Source: an uncultured virus (IMG/VR IMGVR_UViG_3300042879_002288) (taxonomy: Duplodnaviria; Heunggongvirae; Uroviricota; Caudoviricetes; Crassvirales). From it: a DNA stretch of 20,000 nt. This document shows, piece after piece, positions 621 through 14,628 of this stretch. The position numbers and the translations under genes were made by a program. The notes beneath the pieces were generated by a model. The model had not been told where the DNA came from, did no database searches, and worked only from the letters and a program-made list of their open reading frames with translations. The DNA lies in the IMG/VR virus record IMGVR_UViG_3300042879_002288. One strand, 5' to 3'. Numbering within the stretch: the first letter of the stretch is position 1; the number at the start of each line of letters is the position of its first letter.

Positions 621-2084
621 TCATTTTCTTACTGCCCCTTGGGACGTAAAGAACATTTTTTGACCACCACCCCCTTCTTGACTTGTAGGGGTCTGGAAGC
701 CAGTAAGAGTCTGATATACTCTTCCGCTACTCCAGTCACTCAAAGCTAAGTTACCGCCGTACACAAGCTTTAGCAACCCCTCAATATCTCTTGCCGCATC
801 AGTATTGTAAGGGACAGTCACATCACCTATGTCAGTCCCGTCAGATGATGTAGCGTTCTTGATAATCATGCGGTCAGAAAGGAATGTGATGTTCTTTGGA
901 ACAACGGTGACCTTTCCTGCAAGCTGGTCTCTTATTTCTGAATTAACATACTGAGACAGGTTTATCCCTGCTGTTGCCGCCTTCTCTTCGGATATGTTGG
1001 GTAGTGAGTAGTTATATCCAGTTTGAGTTTTTGGTGCTCTGTTGAATATTCCTAATCCTCTTTGCTCTTTTTCCGGCTGGCTCAGTGGAATCTCAACCTG
1101 CTCTACTTGTGCGTTGACAAACGACAGGGCTGGTGGTTTTGTTGTGCCAGTTGAACGTGGAGCAGTCGCGCTTCTCGGAGCATACGTCTTTCTCATGTTC
1201 AAGAACGGGGCAAGAACTGCATCAGCGTACGACTCGGCATAAACTTCGTTGGGGTCTTTTCCTGGGGCATCGACCACCGAGGTACCCATGGTTTGCTCAT
1301 AGTACATCTTCGCCGAGGCCGAAAGAGCCTCGTCGTTAGACACAGACGCAATGATTTCTGGCTTGACTCTGGCTGCAAACGACTTACCAGTATCACTCTC
1401 ATTGACAGCCCTTGTTGCAAGCGGGCTGTATTGTGTAGACAGTTCAAGAGGGGCGATGTAGTTCCAGTCTATCTGAGGCAGGAACGGAGCTGGATTGGCA
1501 GCTATAGGGATGTCAAACAACGGCATTTGTCCGGTTGCTCCAAGACCGTTATACTCAACCATCACCGAACCATCCTCAGCAACAGTCCACCCATCTATCC
1601 CCATGTTCTGAGCCATGTCAGCCTTATGAGTATATGTGCTCAGGTCTTCAGTCACCTTCTTGGTCTTGTCTGGGTATAGTCCAGGAGCCTGCATGTACTT
1701 CATGGTCTCCTGAAGCACGGGCTTTACCGTCTCGTAGTGGTTGCTGAAGTACCCGTGCATATTAGAGACGTTGCCTATGTCTCTATAGAAGTCCTCAATG
1801 CTTGTGTACTGGCTGTTCTTGAGCTTGTCAGCTACCTGACCACGTACCTCATTGAAAATCTGTATGGGCTGGTCACCCCATCCGTTGGTCTTAAATCCGT
1901 ATAAGGATTCAAGTTGCTTCAGCCTAAACTCATTCTTTCTCTCTTGAGATTCAACTATTTGAGCTATGTTAGCTTTCTGCTGCTCCTGTATGAGGGCAAC
2001 TCTTTTTTGCAGGGCGTCTGCATAAGACTCCTGGGCGGCTACAGGAGCCACATAGCCATAGTACGGTGCTGCTTCTTCTGCCAT
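621..2084 (-). CDS. Putative internal virion (ejection/cargo) protein, 487 aa
   Basis: Long ORF starting 1 nt after the upstream stop; N-terminal coiled-coil-like Q/E/K-rich helix; lies in the ejection-protein slot downstream of the nozzle gene. Confidence 0.6.
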   Translation of the reverse strand: MAEEAAPYYGYVAPVAAQESYADALQKRVALIQEQQKANIAQIVESQERKNEFRLKQLESLYGFKTNGWGDQPIQIFNEVRGQVADKLKNSQYTSIEDFYRDIGNVSNMHGYFSNHYETVKPVLQETMKYMQAPGLYPDKTKKVTEDLSTYTHKADMAQNMGIDGWTVAEDGSVMVEYNGLGATGQMPLFDIPIAANPAPFLPQIDWNYIAPLELSTQYSPLATRAVNESDTGKSFAARVKPEIIASVSNDEALSASAKMYYEQTMGTSVVDAPGKDPNEVYAESYADAVLAPFLNMRKTYAPRSATAPRSTGTTKPPALSFVNAQVEQVEIPLSQPEKEQRGLGIFNRAPKTQTGYNYSLPNISEEKAATAGINLSQYVNSEIRDQLAGKVTVVPKNITFLSDRMIIKNATSSDGTDIGDVTVPYNTDAARDIEGLLKLVYGGNLALSDWSSGRVYQTLTGFQTPTSQEGGGGQKMFFTSQGAVRK

Positions 2085-3196: not shown

Positions 3197-3204
3197 CAAA
3201 GGTA
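3197..3204 (-). promoter_or_regulatory. Bacteroidota-type -7 promoter element TACCTTTG
   Basis: Matches TAnnTTTG; sits in a 20-nt intergenic gap, 4 nt before ATG at 3192. No clear -33 element. Confidence 0.65.
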
Positions 3205-3212
3205 ATGTTTTG

Positions 3213-4214
3213 TTATGAACTTGCATCCAGCTTGGAGTGCGAGTATTCAGTATTTATAGCGTATAGTTCAAAAGGCTTTCCATCAGCCTTGGAATCCACA
3301 ACAATCATTGCATATTTCCCTCTAAGAGGGTCGCCATCCATTGCGGGGTCAGAAACCTGATAAAGAACACTTCCAGGAGTAAGACCTCTAAACACGTTTG
3401 AGCCTATCTCAAGCGCATTATTATATATCTGTTTAAAACCTAAAACAACATAAGTGCCAGGATATGCAGAGTTAATTTGGCTTCTTACTCCAGCAATATG
3501 ATAAACAGATTCATCATAACAACCAGCCACAGTAAATGGCTTTTCTACGGCTTGGCTTGATTCAATTTTTATATATTTTGGCTCTGAGTAAGACGGTGGA
3601 ACCGGCGGCTGGTTTATTGTTAATGTAGAAAAAGCCGCCTTGTATTTGGTTTCATCAGAAGAATACCTTGAATCGCCTATTATCTGTGCTGAAAAAGCTA
3701 TATACTTATATCCAGTTTTTATATTTTCTATAAATTTAAGTTGCTGTAATTGACTAGAAGTCAATGGTATATACCCTTGAATCCTGGCAACTATTTTAAA
3801 GTTTTTTGTCGTATTAACAAGAGATGGGCCAATGTCAGTATACAGGGCCTCTTCTCTTGCATCAAACGACTTTATGCTTGACGTCTGTCTTTTTGTAGTG
3901 GAAGAATCGCTTAAATCTAAGTTTGTGGAAACCACAGCATTAAAATTATTTTGATTGCTTTCTATTGACACAGCCTTGTAGACCTTCTCCATTGACGGGT
4001 CTTCGTTGGACACAACAGTAAGCCTACTTGGATATGTTTGCCCATAAAAATTATTTCTACTTTGATTTGTGTTGTGCAACCAACAGATGCTGTCAGAAGA
4101 GTCTACTTGATTGAAAGACAAAAAATAATTGTCTACAGAGCCATAGCAATGAGGCTCAAAACTGTATTTTGTCTTCCAAAAGTTTCCCGAAGTAGAAAAT
4201 GAAAACGTGGCCAT
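3213..4214 (-). CDS. C-terminal part of the tail nozzle/stabilization (muzzle-like) protein encoded as a separate ORF, 333 aa
   Basis: Motifs TFSFS..N.W.TKYSFEP, RNNFYG, K.YKAVSIES, GDPLRGKYA and ELYAINTE match my recollection of the C-terminus of this nozzle family. Same frame as the 2018-aa ORF, 3 nt after its stop. Confidence 0.7.
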   Translation of the reverse strand: MATFSFSTSGNFWKTKYSFEPHCYGSVDNYFLSFNQVDSSDSICWLHNTNQSRNNFYGQTYPSRLTVVSNEDPSMEKVYKAVSIESNQNNFNAVVSTNLDLSDSSTTKRQTSSIKSFDAREEALYTDIGPSLVNTTKNFKIVARIQGYIPLTSSQLQQLKFIENIKTGYKYIAFSAQIIGDSRYSSDETKYKAAFSTLTINQPPVPPSYSEPKYIKIESSQAVEKPFTVAGCYDESVYHIAGVRSQINSAYPGTYVVLGFKQIYNNALEIGSNVFRGLTPGSVLYQVSDPAMDGDPLRGKYAMIVVDSKADGKPFELYAINTEYSHSKLDASS

Positions 4215-4217
4215 ATT

Positions 4218-7200
4218 TTAAGAGTTTTGAGCAAGGAAGTCAAGAAACCCAGACACACTTGTAACGCCTGTAGCCCCAGCAGGAAGCTGACTGTCTTCCG
4301 AAAATCCAGTGGGACCAGAAGATAGCTCAGCCATTTTTGCCGCGTTATATGCTGACGGATTGTAGTTGAACACCTTTTCAGACGGGTCGTATTCAGGGTC
4401 TGGATTTGAATCACCGTACGACTGCAAAAAGTCAAGGAACTGGTCTGTCCCAACCTGGAAATAACCAGTGTTTTGAGACGGAGAAGAAGAGCTTGCCACA
4501 GATATTGTGGCATATATTTTCCTATCGAGCGTTGACCTATCGTCGTTTAGGTTCGTTAACGTTGGGGCGGTGGCAGATGCAACACGACCAGGCTCAAACC
4601 ACTTGTTCAATATGTTTGTTTCTTCACTCCACTCTGGTTGTCCTTGATACTCGAGCAGGCTTTTAATGACATACTGAAGTTGAGATTTAGTCATTTCGCT
4701 TACAGCAATAGAATGCAATAATCTATAAGCTGACTTTACTTTTTCAGAACCAGTTTGAGGTACGGCTGGGAGAGGAAGATTGTTTTTATCTACATATCCA
4801 GGGGAAACCTCTACTGGGCTGAATCTTGACACCGGGGTAAGCTCGGTGGTAGTAGAAGAGCCAGGTTGGTAGTTTGATAAGAAGTTGAGAAGGTCAGTTG
4901 AATTAGACACACCAGCAGGAACGTCTCCAACAAGCTGAGGAGCTGTTGGCGTTGGCGCGGCTGCTGAAGAAGGCTGCTGTGCTAAGAAAGAAAGAAGGTC
5001 GTTTACGCTTGACACTCCAGGTGGAACATCTCCAACAAGTTGGGGGCCCTGTCTCAAGGCAAGAACCTCTGGGTGTATACTTGGATGTATGGCATAGTCG
5101 TCTGGATTTATAAATGAGCCATAGGCAGACATAAAGCCAAGCAAGTCAGCTGAACCTACAGTTCCATCTCTGTTTATATCAAACTTGTTGTATAAGTAAT
5201 CGTTGGTTCCAGCGTATTCATTTAAAAGAGAAAGGCCTCTGTATGTCAACCCAAAAGCATTTATGTTTTTTACAAAATCATCCACAGCAACACCAGATGG
5301 CTCTCCATTGCAGTTGAATCCAAGTTCTGGATAAGAACACATAGAAGGCAGATAAAAAACATTTACAGCTGGCTCTACGTACTGACAAGATTCTGGGTCA
5401 TCACACCCAACTATAATCCCCATCAAATCAACTATATCCTGGCATATACCAGTGTCATATTCAACGCCATTTCTGTCAACATATACATATGTTTTAGTGC
5501 AGTTATTATTACAATCCCTGTATGGAGGCGGAAATACACATGAGCCGTCATTTGTGTTTGCAGATGGGTCGTAGTTGCATGCCGTGCTGGTGGTGCAACC
5601 GAAATATATACAGCCGCCAGGGTCAGTGCTATTAGGGTCGTAGTTATCAGCATCAGGGTCTTGACACCCTATAATCTCCTCCTCGTCGCATATCCCATCT
5701 CCATCAGAGTCATTTAAGCAGTTTCCGTTGCAGTCTTTGTAACTCAATGAATATGTACAGTTCCCGTCATTTATGACAGCCTCGGAGTCGTAACTGCATG
5801 ACGAGGGGTCCATACAACCATAAACATAGATTGGATAAACATCCGGAACCGCTGGAAGCCTGTCAAATAACTTTGTCGTGAACATGTACTCGTCATTGAC
5901 AGAGTCATACCCAGCAGGAACCTTGAATATCTTATTTTGAGCAGAGGCTGCTGCCGTTGCGTTAGCAAGTTCAGTCCTAATAGCAGTCTTCATGCCAACA
6001 GAGCTTATCTCCTCTGTAGACGAGCCCTGTATCATGAACACCTTACCAACAGACGTATTCACAAAATAAAGCGTTCCGTCCACGTCTACAATAGACTCAG
6101 GATGCATGTCACATCCTGCTTGACTCTGGAAATATCTCTCCTTGCCAAGAACGCTCGTGCTGGATGTTATAAGTTCACTTCCAGAAGCATCTTGTATTAT
6201 AGACCTATTGAGCGGTATTAAGGCGCTCTTATTCTCCTGTATGCTAAGTATGGAATCCCCTCTGTCAGCAAGATAACTTATAGAGCCATAGACCTCAGGA
6301 AGGTCCTTGAATCCAAGAAGAGACTGATTGAATGACGAGTACCTTATCCTTGGCGACGACTGCGCTGTTGGGTCAGAGTATATGATGCTGCTCTCATTGG
6401 TGGTCTCCTGAGCTTCTTTCAGTATAATGTTTGGACGACCAAGACCATACGAGTCACCCTTGTACATGTCGCTAAACGTCATGGACTCCACGTACCTGCT
6501 AAAGAACCTGGACTTGGAGTTGTTGCTACCATAGTTGTCCTCTGTATCTACTATGATGTCCTCAAACACAGAATCCTCTTCTTTCCTAAGGTTCAATGCT
6601 ATAGGCCTCCACCAGTAGTCGCCATTTGTTATGAGGTTTGACGCGGAAGCTAAAGTACCAGCAACTGGTATAAAGTCAGATATTTCGTAAAACACCCTTG
6701 AGCTGTCAGACACTTTTTTAGACGGAGTATATATCTCCATGAGGCAGTTGTTGCCCCATCTGTGGAGTTCGTTTTTGACAGCGTTATAGTCAAACCCAGA
6801 AGATGTTGGATTGTCCTTTAATACCAAAAAATGTCCCTTTTTGTAATATGGGACGTTGTTGTAATCCTCGTGAATTGGATTGCCATCATCGCCCAAGTCA
6901 ACAAGGTCTATAACTTCAAAATCGTATCCATATGGATAAACTGTGATTCCGTCAGAAGTTTCGTAAGAGATTATTCTAACCCTATCTCCTGGGGAAAACT
7001 TATATAAATCAAGACCGCCTTCTGAACTTCTTGCTCCAAAAGAACTCGAGTACGACACCGTGCTTCTTTGAAGATAGTTAAGAGACACATAGATGTTGTC
7101 AAACTCATCAGTGGTTGGGTTATGCCTAACATACGCTCCGCCAGAAGTGTACTGTATAAACCTGTCTACTGAGGTAGACCTTGAGTGAACTATTCTAAAA

Positions 7201-10200
7201 CTGTCGGCCCAAGATGGGTGTGAACTTGTTATCTGGATACTGACGTCTATCTTGCCCTTTTCGTTTCTTTCATCGTCAGAATAGCCTGGGGCATATTTTG
7301 TGCCTATGGGATTTACAAAGCCGTGCCTTCCTCTCCTGTCGTAGTAAACAACACCAAACTCGTGAAATGAGTTAGACTTAAATGTCCTAAAATCTGAAGG
7401 AGACCTTACGATGTAGTAGTCAATATATTTCTGAATAATCTCTATTTGTGCATGGGTGTGGACACTAACATCTGCTGGTATTGCCTTATATGGGCTTTGG
7501 TCAACTGCTGAGCCAGGGTTGTCCAGTCTACGAAGGGGGAGACATGATGAAGTTGTTTCAAAAAAAGAAAACGAAGGAACTTCCTGACTTGTCTGATTCC
7601 CTTGATAGTTAATCTCTATTTCATATATAACATCTTTTCCATTAAAGAAATAACCACCAAAGCCACCAAGAGGCGTAAATTTAACGAGCGAAAATATAGA
7701 GCCAGCGTTATTTATATTATACGCAGAATAATCACCATACCCAGGGCCACCGCCAATGCCTGCCTCGCCGTCAACTATGCAGACACCAACAAGGTCAGAG
7801 CTGTAGGTGTTTGACAGATAGTTATTGTACTTAAATTCCTTGACGTATGGGGCAGATGGGCTTTCGTAAATTAAGTAACCAAACTGCTTCTTAAAGTTTG
7901 TGTATCCAGTGTCGTCGTTTATTTCTATGTTTATTGAGCTATAAGTCTCAAGCTTGTAATAATCATTTAAGCTTGTAATTTCCTCGTTGGATATGTTGCT
8001 TATGAATTGATTTATTTTTTGAGCAGCAACATTGCTTCCGCCATAATCTGAGTTCATAAAAGACCTTGACAGCACAACCCACTCACCATCTTGAGCCGGT
8101 CTTCTTATGCAAGAAAAAAGCTCCATATCATAAAGCCTTTTTAGGCTCAACAACACCTCGTTTATTTGTCCATTTTGAGCGTTTTTAACTTTCTGGAACC
8201 CAAAATCAGCGCTGACTTTATTGGGAATCACATAGCCTATAGGACCGCCTTTGGGTATTGGGTTCGCAGAATTTCCAGAAGGAAACACTGGTGTTATAAA
8301 ATAAGCAAGGTTGCTTGATGGCTGTGGTGTTGGGTAAGAAAGATTTAATCTTGGCCCAAAGAACTTTATCCTGTCAAAATTTTGAAGTCCAAGACTTACC
8401 TCATGAGTGAATACTGAATCATTGGAAAGTACTTGAATACCCTGGCTTGGCTCAAGACCGCAAAGAACATTTGTTAATGAGTTACATATCAACTCTGCGG
8501 CATCACTTCCAAAAAGGCTCGGACCACTGTATAAAAACTCGACATAAAAAGAAAGCTGACCTCCTGGGATGATGAACGGTCTTGTAACATCACGACCTAA
8601 AACGGCGGTTTGTCCAGTTACATCAGCAGATGAGTTTATAGAAGACCATCTTGCGGCAATCAAAGACGAGTCGTCTTCAGGGGCATACGAGTCATTTTTT
8701 TCTGTGCTCGTTGGGTATCCCTGGCTAAGTGCTCCTTCCGCAATATATCTGTCTATAGTGTTATTATCCCTGGACGGAAGAGACCATCCGTTTTTATTGT
8801 ATATATGAAAATTTTTGTCTGGGGCTATCTTTAATCTAAACCTAACTACCGAGCTGTTCGGGAGAGAAAGGTCACTACTGTCTACATCAAAGATATAAGA
8901 CGCCCCACCGTTAAACGCTTTGTTCTTTTTCTGCTTTTGAGAATCATTAAGATTTCCTTCCCATTCGGCCTTGCCCCTTATGGAGGGGGTCACGTAGATT
9001 CTTACATCAGTCTCCTTAGGCACATCGTTATAAACCCAGTTTATGCTTGCCTCAACAGACACGTTGTCAAAACCCTCCGTGTAGTTACCATAGAAGAGTC
9101 TGTTGTTTGATATTGTCTGGGTGTATGCCTTTTTAGGAACGGCATCAAACTGCTTCTGCACAGTCTCAGCACTTACCGGGACAAGTATTCTGTCGTTGTA
9201 AAAAGAGTATGAGTAGTATCCGCTTTGTCCTGTAGCGGTTGACAGAGAGCTAACCATGACCTCTTCTATAAGCATAAAAGAAGACGTATCGTGCTCTCTA
9301 ACAAGTATCTTGATTGAAGCTACTTCTTTGTTTGCTGGAGGTATATAAAGCTCACACACGTTAACGAATGAGTAGTCAACGTATGGGGCCGCTCCTTGAG
9401 AAAGAAGCACCTGGGGAACAGCAAGGTCAGAGTAGGGAGATATTGATGACTCTATGCCATCGTTGTATACATACTGGTACGCAAATGTGAAGCAAGAGCC
9501 AGACGAAAAGTTAGAACCGTTGAATGCCGAGTCATACCCAAACTCAAACTTTATCTTCTTTAAGGGAGTTCTTGGGCAGGCAGAAATAAAATCGTCAACC
9601 TCTGGAAACGAGTAGTTCTCATATCCATAGGTATTAACTTGACCAACGGGGCTTTCTCCTTCGTAATACTGCTCAGTGTTATTTAGTAAGGCTCTATATA
9701 CGTTTATCTTTTTGGGTTCATTCTTTCCGTCCGTAAAGTACAGAATGGCATCGGCACTCATCTCATTCCAGTATCCATTGGACTCCATGTGAGACTTTAT
9801 GTTCTGGTGCTTTGCAAACTCAGAGCGCTTTGTGTGGACTACGTCTCCCTTCACAAACCCGTCTTGAGGGAACATAAACCTGCTTGAGGCCATGATAAGC
9901 CTTATGCTGTTAGGCTTCCCAGCGGGCTCTTCCTTGCTTTTAGGCAGTCTTCCTTGAGGGTCGTAAGCGAATATAGAGTTTATGTTGTTCTGGTTGGAGT
10001 AGACAAAGAAGTAAACAATCTTCGTCTTTTGGTCGGTTACGGTTCCTAAGATTCTATAGTTGTATATGTCTGGAAGAAGGTCAAAATCGTTGTATCCATC
10101 TACGGCAGTATTGCCAAGTACATTCTTAATCACGCCAACATCACCAGAACCCTCTTCACCAGATGACAACGAGTCTGTTATAGATACGTTCAATGCGTCA

Positions 10201-10274
10201 ATCATGGAGTCCTTAGGCGTGAGCTTAAGGTCCATCGAAGTGTCTAACTTCTTTGGTAGTATCTTGTCAATCAT
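4218..10274 (-). CDS. Tail nozzle/stabilization protein (P22 gp10 / crAss muzzle-like), main part with C-terminal Cys-rich/dockerin-like extension, 2018 aa
   Basis: Family-type motifs: IDALNV, LYFTDGKNEPKKIN, FAYQYVYNDG.ES.ISPYS, FDAVP.KA..Q.I.NNRL.YGNY.EG, GVVYYD..GR, HPES, GYD..NDEY. Located after two ring proteins. Confidence 0.75.
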   Translation of the reverse strand: MIDKILPKKLDTSMDLKLTPKDSMIDALNVSITDSLSSGEEGSGDVGVIKNVLGNTAVDGYNDFDLLPDIYNYRILGTVTDQKTKIVYFFVYSNQNNINSIFAYDPQGRLPKSKEEPAGKPNSIRLIMASSRFMFPQDGFVKGDVVHTKRSEFAKHQNIKSHMESNGYWNEMSADAILYFTDGKNEPKKINVYRALLNNTEQYYEGESPVGQVNTYGYENYSFPEVDDFISACPRTPLKKIKFEFGYDSAFNGSNFSSGSCFTFAYQYVYNDGIESSISPYSDLAVPQVLLSQGAAPYVDYSFVNVCELYIPPANKEVASIKILVREHDTSSFMLIEEVMVSSLSTATGQSGYYSYSFYNDRILVPVSAETVQKQFDAVPKKAYTQTISNNRLFYGNYTEGFDNVSVEASINWVYNDVPKETDVRIYVTPSIRGKAEWEGNLNDSQKQKKNKAFNGGASYIFDVDSSDLSLPNSSVVRFRLKIAPDKNFHIYNKNGWSLPSRDNNTIDRYIAEGALSQGYPTSTEKNDSYAPEDDSSLIAARWSSINSSADVTGQTAVLGRDVTRPFIIPGGQLSFYVEFLYSGPSLFGSDAAELICNSLTNVLCGLEPSQGIQVLSNDSVFTHEVSLGLQNFDRIKFFGPRLNLSYPTPQPSSNLAYFITPVFPSGNSANPIPKGGPIGYVIPNKVSADFGFQKVKNAQNGQINEVLLSLKRLYDMELFSCIRRPAQDGEWVVLSRSFMNSDYGGSNVAAQKINQFISNISNEEITSLNDYYKLETYSSINIEINDDTGYTNFKKQFGYLIYESPSAPYVKEFKYNNYLSNTYSSDLVGVCIVDGEAGIGGGPGYGDYSAYNINNAGSIFSLVKFTPLGGFGGYFFNGKDVIYEIEINYQGNQTSQEVPSFSFFETTSSCLPLRRLDNPGSAVDQSPYKAIPADVSVHTHAQIEIIQKYIDYYIVRSPSDFRTFKSNSFHEFGVVYYDRRGRHGFVNPIGTKYAPGYSDDERNEKGKIDVSIQITSSHPSWADSFRIVHSRSTSVDRFIQYTSGGAYVRHNPTTDEFDNIYVSLNYLQRSTVSYSSSFGARSSEGGLDLYKFSPGDRVRIISYETSDGITVYPYGYDFEVIDLVDLGDDGNPIHEDYNNVPYYKKGHFLVLKDNPTSSGFDYNAVKNELHRWGNNCLMEIYTPSKKVSDSSRVFYEISDFIPVAGTLASASNLITNGDYWWRPIALNLRKEEDSVFEDIIVDTEDNYGSNNSKSRFFSRYVESMTFSDMYKGDSYGLGRPNIILKEAQETTNESSIIYSDPTAQSSPRIRYSSFNQSLLGFKDLPEVYGSISYLADRGDSILSIQENKSALIPLNRSIIQDASGSELITSSTSVLGKERYFQSQAGCDMHPESIVDVDGTLYFVNTSVGKVFMIQGSSTEEISSVGMKTAIRTELANATAAASAQNKIFKVPAGYDSVNDEYMFTTKLFDRLPAVPDVYPIYVYGCMDPSSCSYDSEAVINDGNCTYSLSYKDCNGNCLNDSDGDGICDEEEIIGCQDPDADNYDPNSTDPGGCIYFGCTTSTACNYDPSANTNDGSCVFPPPYRDCNNNCTKTYVYVDRNGVEYDTGICQDIVDLMGIIVGCDDPESCQYVEPAVNVFYLPSMCSYPELGFNCNGEPSGVAVDDFVKNINAFGLTYRGLSLLNEYAGTNDYLYNKFDINRDGTVGSADLLGFMSAYGSFINPDDYAIHPSIHPEVLALRQGPQLVGDVPPGVSSVNDLLSFLAQQPSSAAAPTPTAPQLVGDVPAGVSNSTDLLNFLSNYQPGSSTTTELTPVSRFSPVEVSPGYVDKNNLPLPAVPQTGSEKVKSAYRLLHSIAVSEMTKSQLQYVIKSLLEYQGQPEWSEETNILNKWFEPGRVASATAPTLTNLNDDRSTLDRKIYATISVASSSSPSQNTGYFQVGTDQFLDFLQSYGDSNPDPEYDPSEKVFNYNPSAYNAAKMAELSSGPTGFSEDSQLPAGATGVTSVSGFLDFLAQNS
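4878..5045 (-). repeat. 63-nt direct repeat pair (4878-4940 and 4983-5045) within the nozzle gene
   Basis: 46/63 nt identical by manual alignment; encodes PQLVGDVPPGVSSVNDLLSFL and PQLVGDVPAGVSNSTDLLNFL. Confidence 0.85.
5304..5819 (-). repeat. Cys-rich GCxDPxxxNYxPxAxxxDGxC-type protein repeats (4 copies) plus a DxDxDGxCD Ca-binding-like motif
   Basis: GCMDPSSCSYDSEAVINDGNC, GCQDPDADNYDPNSTDPGGC, GCTTSTACNYDPSANTNDGSC, GCDDPESCQY; DCNGNCLNDSDGDGICDEEE. Confidence 0.85.
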
Positions 10275-14214: not shown

Positions 14215-14580
14215 TTAAGAGAATGTGGCTCCGGCAAAAGAGACCAAAGCCCATGCCTCACCGTTCCACATCAACGTGATATGCTCGTCAGCTGCATTAA
14301 GAACAAAAACGTCGTATCCACCGTCAACAACTGTACTGATAGTTAGTGTAGCATAATTTGTGTCGCTGGCTGCTTCCGCCCAAATCATAAGCATCTGGCC
14401 AGGAACTTCTCCATTGGGAAGAGTCAATGCGTTGTTGGTATTTCCGTCAATTACCAACTTGATAAAGCTCGTGTCAACGGGAAGCGTTTGAGCCGTAGCC
14501 GCATCTTCTATAGTAGCCACATCAGCCTTAAGATAAAGCGGAAAGACGTGGTTTTTTCTGTTTGTATTTACTACTGCCAT
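14215..14580 (-). CDS. Small beta-rich head-fibre/decoration-like protein, 121 aa (start revised to 14580)
   Basis: MAVVNTNRK... with an A-rich upstream context (AAATAAAAGAAATC-ATG). Motifs LTLPNG..PGQ...I and L.WNG.AW.LV are typical of small phage fibre domains. The ORF-track start lies inside a hairpin. Confidence 0.6.
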   Translation of the reverse strand: MAVVNTNRKNHVFPLYLKADVATIEDAATAQTLPVDTSFIKLVIDGNTNNALTLPNGEVPGQMLMIWAEAASDTNYATLTISTVVDGGYDVFVLNAADEHITLMWNGEAWALVSFAGATFS

Positions 14581-14602
14581 GATTTCTTTTATTTGTGAGT
14601 TA

Positions 14603-14628
14603 AGGGGAGGAGCCAAAACCCCTCCCCT
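14603..14628 (-). other. GC-rich stem-loop directly after the major capsid gene (no U-tract)
   Basis: Minus strand AGGGGAGGGGT-TTTG-GCTCCTCCCCT followed by TAACTCAC. Confidence 0.7.

Follow-up and report, generated by a model that had tools for sequence, protein, structure and literature searches.

The split muzzle gene pair

The 20 kb window considered here (the whole stretch analysed, whose numbering is used throughout), from the uncultured Crassvirales record IMGVR_UViG_3300042879_002288, contains a run of minus-strand genes, two of which encode the N- and C-terminal parts of one crAss-like muzzle (nozzle) protein, here called chain A (P0001) and chain B (P0002) (Table 1). Among the tail proteins of crAss-like phages, the muzzle is the best conserved, and its presumed roles are the gating of ejection and contact with the cell. 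An earlier sequence-only reading of this DNA had regarded the two open reading frames (ORFs) as pieces of one nozzle, which the family and fold searches bear out.

P0001 has a match to Pfam crAss_MUZ (PF25731) of 51.9 bits (cut-off 27, E 4.7e-14), the best stretch covering only residues 1328-1468 on profile positions 1054-1187 of 1224, and P0002 has a match to crAss_MUZ_C (PF25729) of 46.6 bits (cut-off 27), a family also matched by 34 of 35 B-like homologues. In PHROGs, P0001 corresponds to phrog_14478 (E 2.7e-67) and P0002 to phrog_18548, a group of short proteins matched from their position 3, as well as to positions 1552-1638 of 1783 in phrog_15100; nearby ORFs match crAss-type 'virion structural protein' PHROGs. 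The AlphaFold2 model of P0002, made with 35 homologues, has a predicted local distance difference test score (pLDDT) of 87.2, and VIA-align places its residues 1..326 on 1199..1371 of the gp44 chain of crAss001, which are the C-terminal 173 residues (7qok_A and 7qol_P; Z 9.2-9.3, root-mean-square deviation 3.0, 152 aligned). Weaker VIA-align matches are to the C-terminal parts of the nozzle proteins of Carin-1 (8ck1_A, Z 5.8) and T7 (9jyz_P, Z 5.1), with unrelated beta-sandwiches reaching Z ~5.5 against the same model. Foldseek gives 7qok_A a probability of 1.00 but an E-value of 0.01, with nothing at E<=0.001. Fold likeness to gp44 was computed for chain B only. Phmmer searches of P0001 and P0002, together with a profile of B homologues, found no match among PDB sequences, and an NCBIfam scan of the tail of chain A and of chain B gave nothing meaningful. 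With all the tested features of the crAss muzzle family except that of being a single polypeptide, the window protein is a split member of this family.

The junction on the coding strand reads CAA AAC TCT TAA AAT ATG GCC, so that chain A finishes with ...FLAQNS and chain B, which opens with the residues MATFSFSTSGNFWKTKYSFEPH and has an (M)ATFSFSTSGNFWK-type start, begins one codon past the stop in the same frame, exactly as described in the sequence-only reading. The junction region is present in lake and freshwater metagenome runs, and contigs from three runs of three studies span positions 4214-4220 with no alternative letter and no indel (X4 record 2, 3716-6000; X7 record 4, 4142-4383; X8 record 11, 4162-4312). 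The first of these belongs to a strain with 15 differences elsewhere and an identical junction. This evidence consists of assembled contigs, which could hide rare variants, and a fourth run, X9, did not span the site. The 18 complete minus-strand ORFs listed stop with TAA (15), TGA (2) or TAG (1), and a tRNA scan of the window found no tRNA gene, suppressor tRNAs included. The TAA between A and B is a genuine, normal stop.

Table 1. Muzzle gene pair of the window: genes, junction and recognised parts of chains A and B
Feature	Position	Strand	Basis
Muzzle chain A gene, 2018 aa (P0001)	4218..10274	-	ORF list and translation; stop TAA at 4218-4220
Muzzle chain B gene, 333 aa (P0002)	3213..4214	-	ORF list and translation
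Spacer AAT, 3 nt, between the A stop and the B start	4215..4217	-	Sequence
Muzzle core of A, residues 1-1463	5886..10274	-	Motif position; 54% identity to L061 over whole length
Strand GYDSVNDEY, A residues 1455-1463	5886..5912	-	Ends the core; 555 residues follow
C-terminal tail of A, 555 aa (P0153), absent from fused homologues	4221..5885	-	Sequence comparison
Cys-rich repeats, tail residues ~24-192, with TSP3-like DSDGDGICDEEE stretch	5310..5816	-	Sequence
EF-hand/dockerin-like putative Ca-binding loop and helix DINRDGTVGSADLLGFMSAY, tail residues 236-255	5121..5180	-	Motif scan
Two degenerate repeats PQLVGDVP.GVS...DLL.FL...	4869..5048	-	Sequence and motif list
GVTSVSGFLDFLAQNS helix motif, end of chain A	4221..4268	-	Similar endings in relatives
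B residues 1-51, five predicted strands	4062..4214	-	Strands E3-7, 12-16, 23-27, 30-38, 41-47 (model)
B residues 52-128, crAss_MUZ_C domain	3831..4061	-	PF25729
B residues ~135-290, variable middle domain (~155 aa), absent from gp44	3345..3812	-	Alignment and model
B residues 291-333, conserved end GD..RGKYA...PFELYAIN.EY..SKLD	3216..3344	-	Conserved columns; aligns to P0124 C-terminus

Split and fused muzzles among relatives

Homologues of chain B number 808 at E<=0.001 (HMMER, 1.84 billion representatives). The best 150 of these include 117 stand-alone proteins, in which the match begins within 30 residues of their start, 21 long fused proteins of 1135-1890 aa, in which it lies ~250 residues before the end, and 12 intermediate or partial ones. 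No relative turned up when IMG/VR was scanned with the P0002 sequence alone; the alignment-based scan gave 59 loci, 38 of them split at this loop and 21 fused.

In 34 of the 38 split loci, the ORF adjoining the B-like gene holds the muzzle core, followed by a tail of 92-842 aa. The alignment of the core with P0001 stops near residue 1466 in 25 of the 34 and at about 1436-1441 in ten loci of the L030/L038 type. In two other split loci, L003 and L008, the A chain (tails of 391 and 279 aa in the two loci) is not adjacent to B, with one ORF (191 aa, L003:8426-9001) or three ORFs (504, 698 and 708 aa, L008:3322-8974) lying before B, which indicates that the break also takes insertions of whole genes. 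The contig end truncates locus L002, and L052 yielded no core.

Single-gene homologues have the GYD..DEY strand and then a T.(A/S)FS...W..(R/K)YSF.P strand, as in the fused P0124, which reads ...AGYDPMNEEVIFTYFGANENFTIAFSDGSNFWKSRYSF..., with the two strands about ten residues apart. The sequence-only reading had these motifs normally lying within a few tens of residues of each other, and this is the case: among the 21 long fused representatives, the loop between them measures 5-62 aa in 9 (P0124 being one example), and a compact insert of 135-157 aa occupies it in 12, with no stop there in any. The fused IMG/VR loci for which both ends could be placed (12 of 21) have a gap of 8-42 aa between the end of the core and the start of the B part. 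The 12 insert-bearing representatives (P0083, P0095, P0100, P0137 and eight more) share a W..W..WE..G.G.V..D pattern in the insert and show no fission.

In all measurable split forms, a stop at this loop goes together with a tail on the first chain; the minimal tails, of ~100 aa, are those of L026, L036 and L037. The sequence-only reading had proposed that a ~550-aa insertion into the loop was accompanied by fission of the gene, and had named, as an observation that would speak against this, homologues lacking the insertion yet split in the same way. The extra residues do lie exactly at the loop, 555 in number, and relatives with tails as short as ~92-100 aa are split at the same place, which comes close to that observation, with no split form devoid of a tail; the fission was neither caused by the insertion nor specific to this phage, being common to a clade of 26 rows in the tree described below.

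This tree of the core segment (70 rows, 557 columns, IQ-TREE quick search, LG+G4) needs two changes between the split and fused states. The 26 split rows, including the window, form one group (support of 99 in the Shimodaira-Hasegawa-like approximate likelihood ratio test, SH-aLRT), whose nearest fused neighbours are P0124, P0144 and P0152, with short linkers, and a second small split group (L030-L034) is found elsewhere. The split at this loop is thus old, having been inherited throughout the main clade, and a second, separate origin in another lineage is probable. The closest relative with known context, L061/L062 (metagenome), is split alike and has an identity to the window of 55% in B, 54% in A and 50% in the full-length tail. 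Two proteins from the databases, P0157 (95% in the core segment) and P0189, share this tail plan and finish in a similar way (...GFLDFLAQNA in P0157 and ...DLLGFLSNQ in P0189, with ...NDLLNFLSNQ* in L061), and the copy number of their PQLVGDVP-type repeats differs. Since the tail is kept with the core in L061/L062, P0157 and P0189, tail and core were inherited together in this lineage, and the tail did not arise by recent insertion.

Two adjacent ORFs share a frame by chance in about one case in three, and a shared frame is unremarkable by itself. The 34 adjacent split loci share it in only two (L007 and L011), which is below this expectation, and the junction of L061/L062, ...CAG TAA gc ATG GCA..., is out of frame. 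In these loci, -8 to +16 nt separate the stop from the start, except for two in which the guess of the start is unsure, and ATGA and TAATG overlaps are frequent. The conserved feature is the tight juxtaposition of the two genes and not their frame.

The tail of chain A

The window tail contains 18 Cys residues in total and has no Pfam family above cut-off. The sub-threshold matches include EF-hand_1 (17 bits, cut-off 25.4) and EF-hand_6 at tail residues 231-256, as well as TSP3_bac at residues 59-71; Dockerin_1 (PF00404) gave no match at E<=10 in this tail, and the two tandem segments above cut-off that mark the family were not found in it. Besides its canonical loop, the window tail has four more DLL.FL-like helices, the last one forming the end of the protein.

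Among the 120 matches listed in a search with the tail, 118 are to proteins without a muzzle core at E<=1e-5, covering 14-52% of the 555-aa query, and seven of these carry source names that mark them as proteins of Flavobacteriales or Bacteroidetes metagenome-assembled genomes. The part common to the tail and these database proteins would be the Cys-rich repeat region. Many of the tail-matching proteins carry the precomputed Pfam assignments PF18962, PF13573 and PF18884, which we take to be the type IX secretion system (T9SS) sorting domain, the SprB repeat and TSP3_bac, respectively.

The tails of the different loci form at least ten groups without BLAST similarity to one another. Domains of immunoglobulin (Ig)-like type are found above the Pfam cut-off in three tails (Big_9 in L030 and L038, and a HYDIN-like Ig in L022), and two further tails have Ig-like matches just under the cut-off. 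The suggestion of swappable binding modules made in the sequence-only reading is plausible, given these unrelated groups, some of them with Ig-like domains; the binding itself remains putative.

One element recurs among the tails, D.N.DG.V...DLL.FL..(Y/F)G, present in one to three copies and usually located 25-40 residues from the C-terminus. A strict pattern for this EF-hand/dockerin-like motif was counted 33 times in the tails (15,227 aa in total), with 21 of the 35 tails containing it, and not once in the corresponding cores (48,393 aa), the mean in 200 shuffles being 0.02. All 21 motif-bearing tails come from the main split group. Sub-threshold matches to EF-hand or Dockerin_1 are found in 12 of 23 tails; L004 has two segments 29 residues apart, with a Dockerin_1 score of 21.9 bits (cut-off 22.9). 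A profile built from 23 motif segments matched only EF-hand (calmodulin) and dockerin chains in the PDB, with a best E-value of 9e-4. The ~100-aa tails of L026, L036 and L037 consist of an acidic linker and the EF-hand/dockerin-like element.

Proposed two-chain muzzle and alternatives

Here it is proposed that the tail-tip muzzle of this freshwater crAss-like phage is likely built from two polypeptides, encoded by adjacent and tightly coupled genes, and that chain A ends in an exposed, exchangeable arm. Chain B would supply the last blade of the propeller and the C-terminal domain that joins the ring and forms the platform; if so, A and B must assemble non-covalently, six of each, into one muzzle. 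B residues 1-51 align to the stretch directly after GYD..EE in the fused P0124 and, judging from the gp44 domain description (PMC10172136), may form the final blade that the propeller of chain A lacks. In relatives, the two genes lie close together, which could favour co-translation, giving about equal amounts of A and B. A cut in the loop between propeller blades would provide a free C-terminus, with no need for the added sequence to return to the fold, and long linkers, Ig-like domains, Cys-rich repeats and EF-hand/dockerin-like modules could be appended to it. An insertion into the loop needs both of its ends to meet, which would account for the fused forms holding short linkers or one compact domain and the split forms up to 842 residues. 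The tail would in this manner serve as an exposed and exchangeable arm on the muzzle.

As for what the arm does, Ca-dependent contact with the host surface is the most likely of the roles considered, although it is put forward tentatively, because the Cys-rich/TSP3-like repeats are common with surface proteins of Flavobacteriales type and other tails have Ig/cadherin-like domains. Docking of the tail to another part of the virion comes next, as a possible role with a somewhat weaker claim, because the distal module is conserved and because Pseudomonas phage A1002 offers an analogy in its nozzle-rope (PMC13730344). A three-chain co-fold (A 1-250, A 1100-1475 and B), in which one replaced-chain control stayed high, speaks neither for nor against binding.

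Several observations weigh against the two-chain muzzle with an exchangeable arm. The assembly of A with B is a prediction from homology to single-chain proteins. All the EF-hand and dockerin matches are under the Pfam cut-offs and their PDB E-values are weak (9e-4 to 10), and the window tail has a single canonical loop (DINRDGTVGSADLLGFMSAY). No cohesin family was found in the 19 window proteins scanned as a source of a cohesin-like partner, this search covering a 20 kb part of the phage. For the 555-aa tail, the AlphaFold2 model (4-row alignment) is unusable, with a pLDDT of 33 and a predicted template modelling score of 0.25. In one co-occurring strain, the single-nucleotide polymorphisms (SNPs) of the contig in the tail are synonymous in 5 and non-synonymous in 6 of 11 cases, which amounts to mild constraint only, over few sites. 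Regarding the tree, 13 of the 82 pool rows were dropped (no core match, a match of <250 residues, or a duplicate), six L038-type split loci among them, and the second split group lies on a long branch flagged as unsafe by the tool.

The alternative that survives best accepts the split and has the distal module docking back on the virion (chain B, the ring protein or the fibres), either as a clasp replacing the peptide bond or as a mount like the A1002 nozzle-rope. This is rather unlikely, though it explains several features: the motif is the one element common to otherwise unrelated tails, mostly lies 25-40 residues before their C-terminus and makes up the chief part of the minimal tails, and a conserved distal module suggests a conserved partner; moreover, one of the two halves of the A1002 split nozzle carries a fibre-docking rope (PMC13730344). 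Against it stand the lack of a cohesin-like domain among the window proteins scanned, the tails of the second split group (L030-34 and L038-type), which have Big_9 Ig domains without the motif, and the Cys-rich repeats common with bacterial surface proteins, which fit an outward-facing role. A more specific version, in which the EF-hand/dockerin-like module is a Ca-dependent cohesin-dockerin-like plug that re-anchors the arm or recruits exchangeable fibres or adhesins, the fission having been selected for the free C-terminus that this needs, is doubtful.

Programmed or occasional readthrough of the TAA, yielding a functionally needed fusion of ~2350 aa, is very improbable. The sequence-only reading had allowed for such a product, given that the ORFs share their frame one codon apart, and a perfect 10-bp stem (GCUCAAAACU / AGUUUUGAGC, window 4139-4232, minus strand) flanks the A stop and the B start. 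However, the frame is shared in fewer of the adjacent split loci than expected by chance, and the closest relative, L061/L062, is out of frame; overlapping ATGA and TAATG junctions are common; and at two loci other genes, one or three in number, separate A from B. In addition, the fold of the junction RNA is unremarkable (z -1.66, with 11 of 200 shuffles folding equally well), the stem-forming codons differ in L061, and TAA is the ordinary stop of this window, which has no tRNA gene. The frame not being conserved, a readthrough fusion is unsupported; the shared frame in the window is a coincidence, the fusion product is not part of the design, and the in-frame stop with its possible readthrough is a matter of chance, of no importance. 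The least probable of all, and contradicted by the data, is a stop that arose through faulty assembly or sequencing, or through a recent mutation inactivating one long gene: single-gene homologues do exist (Elemovirus gp22 with 1470 aa, and 21 of the 59 IMG/VR loci), but the contigs of three studies carry the same junction, the split is common to relatives at 32-55% identity with an intact, conserved B, and the fusion would hold 555 extra residues that are in no fused form at this loop.

Three further explanations were considered and rejected. Reassignment of TAA, as in some crAss-like phages, disagrees with its use as the stop of 15 of the 18 listed ORFs and with the lack of a suppressor tRNA in the window. 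An intein or intron was rejected because the two parts are separated by 3 nt only, and a pseudogene because B is conserved across its 808 homologues.

Comparison with known nozzle proteins

The window pair is like gp44 of Bacteroides phage crAss001 (PDB 7QOK and 7QOL; Bayfield et al. 2023, PMC10172136) in its Pfam family, its C-terminal fold and its place in the crAss-like structural module. The protein gp44 is one chain of ~1361-1371 residues, whereas in the window the cut falls at the position matching residue ~1199, with chain A adding the 555-aa tail and chain B the middle domain of ~155 aa. Length variation through insertions in the crass and IG2 domains has been described for gp44, and the available parts of that paper (PMC10172136) do not mention a split. 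Other single-chain homologues, from environmental phages of Bacteroidota (gp22 of Flavobacterium phage elemo, NC_055854, 1470 aa, as well as P0124, P0144 and P0152), have the same core and C-terminal part with no stop at the loop.

A split nozzle is known from Pseudomonas phage A1002, where it comprises the gp39 nozzle-rope and the gp42 nozzle-base (PLoS Biol 2026, PMC13730344). A1002 and the window are alike in that the propeller and platform of a podophage nozzle are completed by two chains, one of which has a long extension serving other tail parts; for the window this would be the predicted arrangement. They differ in that A1002 belongs to another phage group and its rope lies on the N-terminal side of the platform-C/propeller-C piece and binds fibre dimers (PMC13730344), whereas in the window it is the large piece that is extended, at its C-terminus. 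With respect to type I dockerins and EF-hands (PF00404 and PF00036), the tails have the D.N.DG.V...DLL..L pattern and the resemblance is putative, no Pfam cut-off being reached; a single canonical loop is accompanied by degenerate copies in the window.

A literature search, which did not extend to supplements, found no published description of a split crAss-like muzzle. New here are the clade-wide link between the split and the tail, the EF-hand/dockerin-like module of the tails of the main split clade, and the testing and rejection of readthrough. The window and its relatives would offer a second, independent example of the split-nozzle principle after A1002. If a large environmental clade has a two-chain muzzle, annotation pipelines expecting one gene would wrongly label the short second one as unknown. 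The loop that separates the final two blades of the propeller would also be a natural, tolerated site for cutting and display, useful for engineering, and, with exchangeable modules on the free end of chain A, determinants of host range may sit on the muzzle and not only on the fibres.

Additional observations on chain B and the neighbourhood

The middle domain of chain B has a confidently folded alpha/beta structure in the AlphaFold2 model and is a variable block in the alignment of B homologues. A high-depth contig of X4 matches only the ends of the B gene (3200-3287 and 4140-4178) and corresponds to a co-occurring relative, in which 813 different letters replace the 852 of window positions 3288-4139, that is, a different middle of chain B. 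The B-like P0014 has two DLL..L..FG-type segments in the variable middle (alignment columns 230-290), which points to an EF-hand/dockerin-like element on chain B too in some phages.

Some B-like proteins (P0034, P0113 and P0075) have N-terminal extensions of their own, of 80-145 aa, with a Y.G.YH.HP..GAMVG motif followed by Gly/Asn-rich or Pro/Gly-rich linkers, and the new N-terminus therefore also takes additions. P0097 (343 aa) and P0138 (312 aa) start ~45 residues earlier and include a GYD..nDEY-like strand, representing another cut point or partial calls. Elsewhere in the window, a 133-aa ORF (14215-14616, minus strand) matches the phage depolymerase C-terminal beta-sandwich family PF25692 (29.9 bits, cut-off 25), which suggests a fragment of a depolymerase-type tail protein, or a small gene of this type, nearby.

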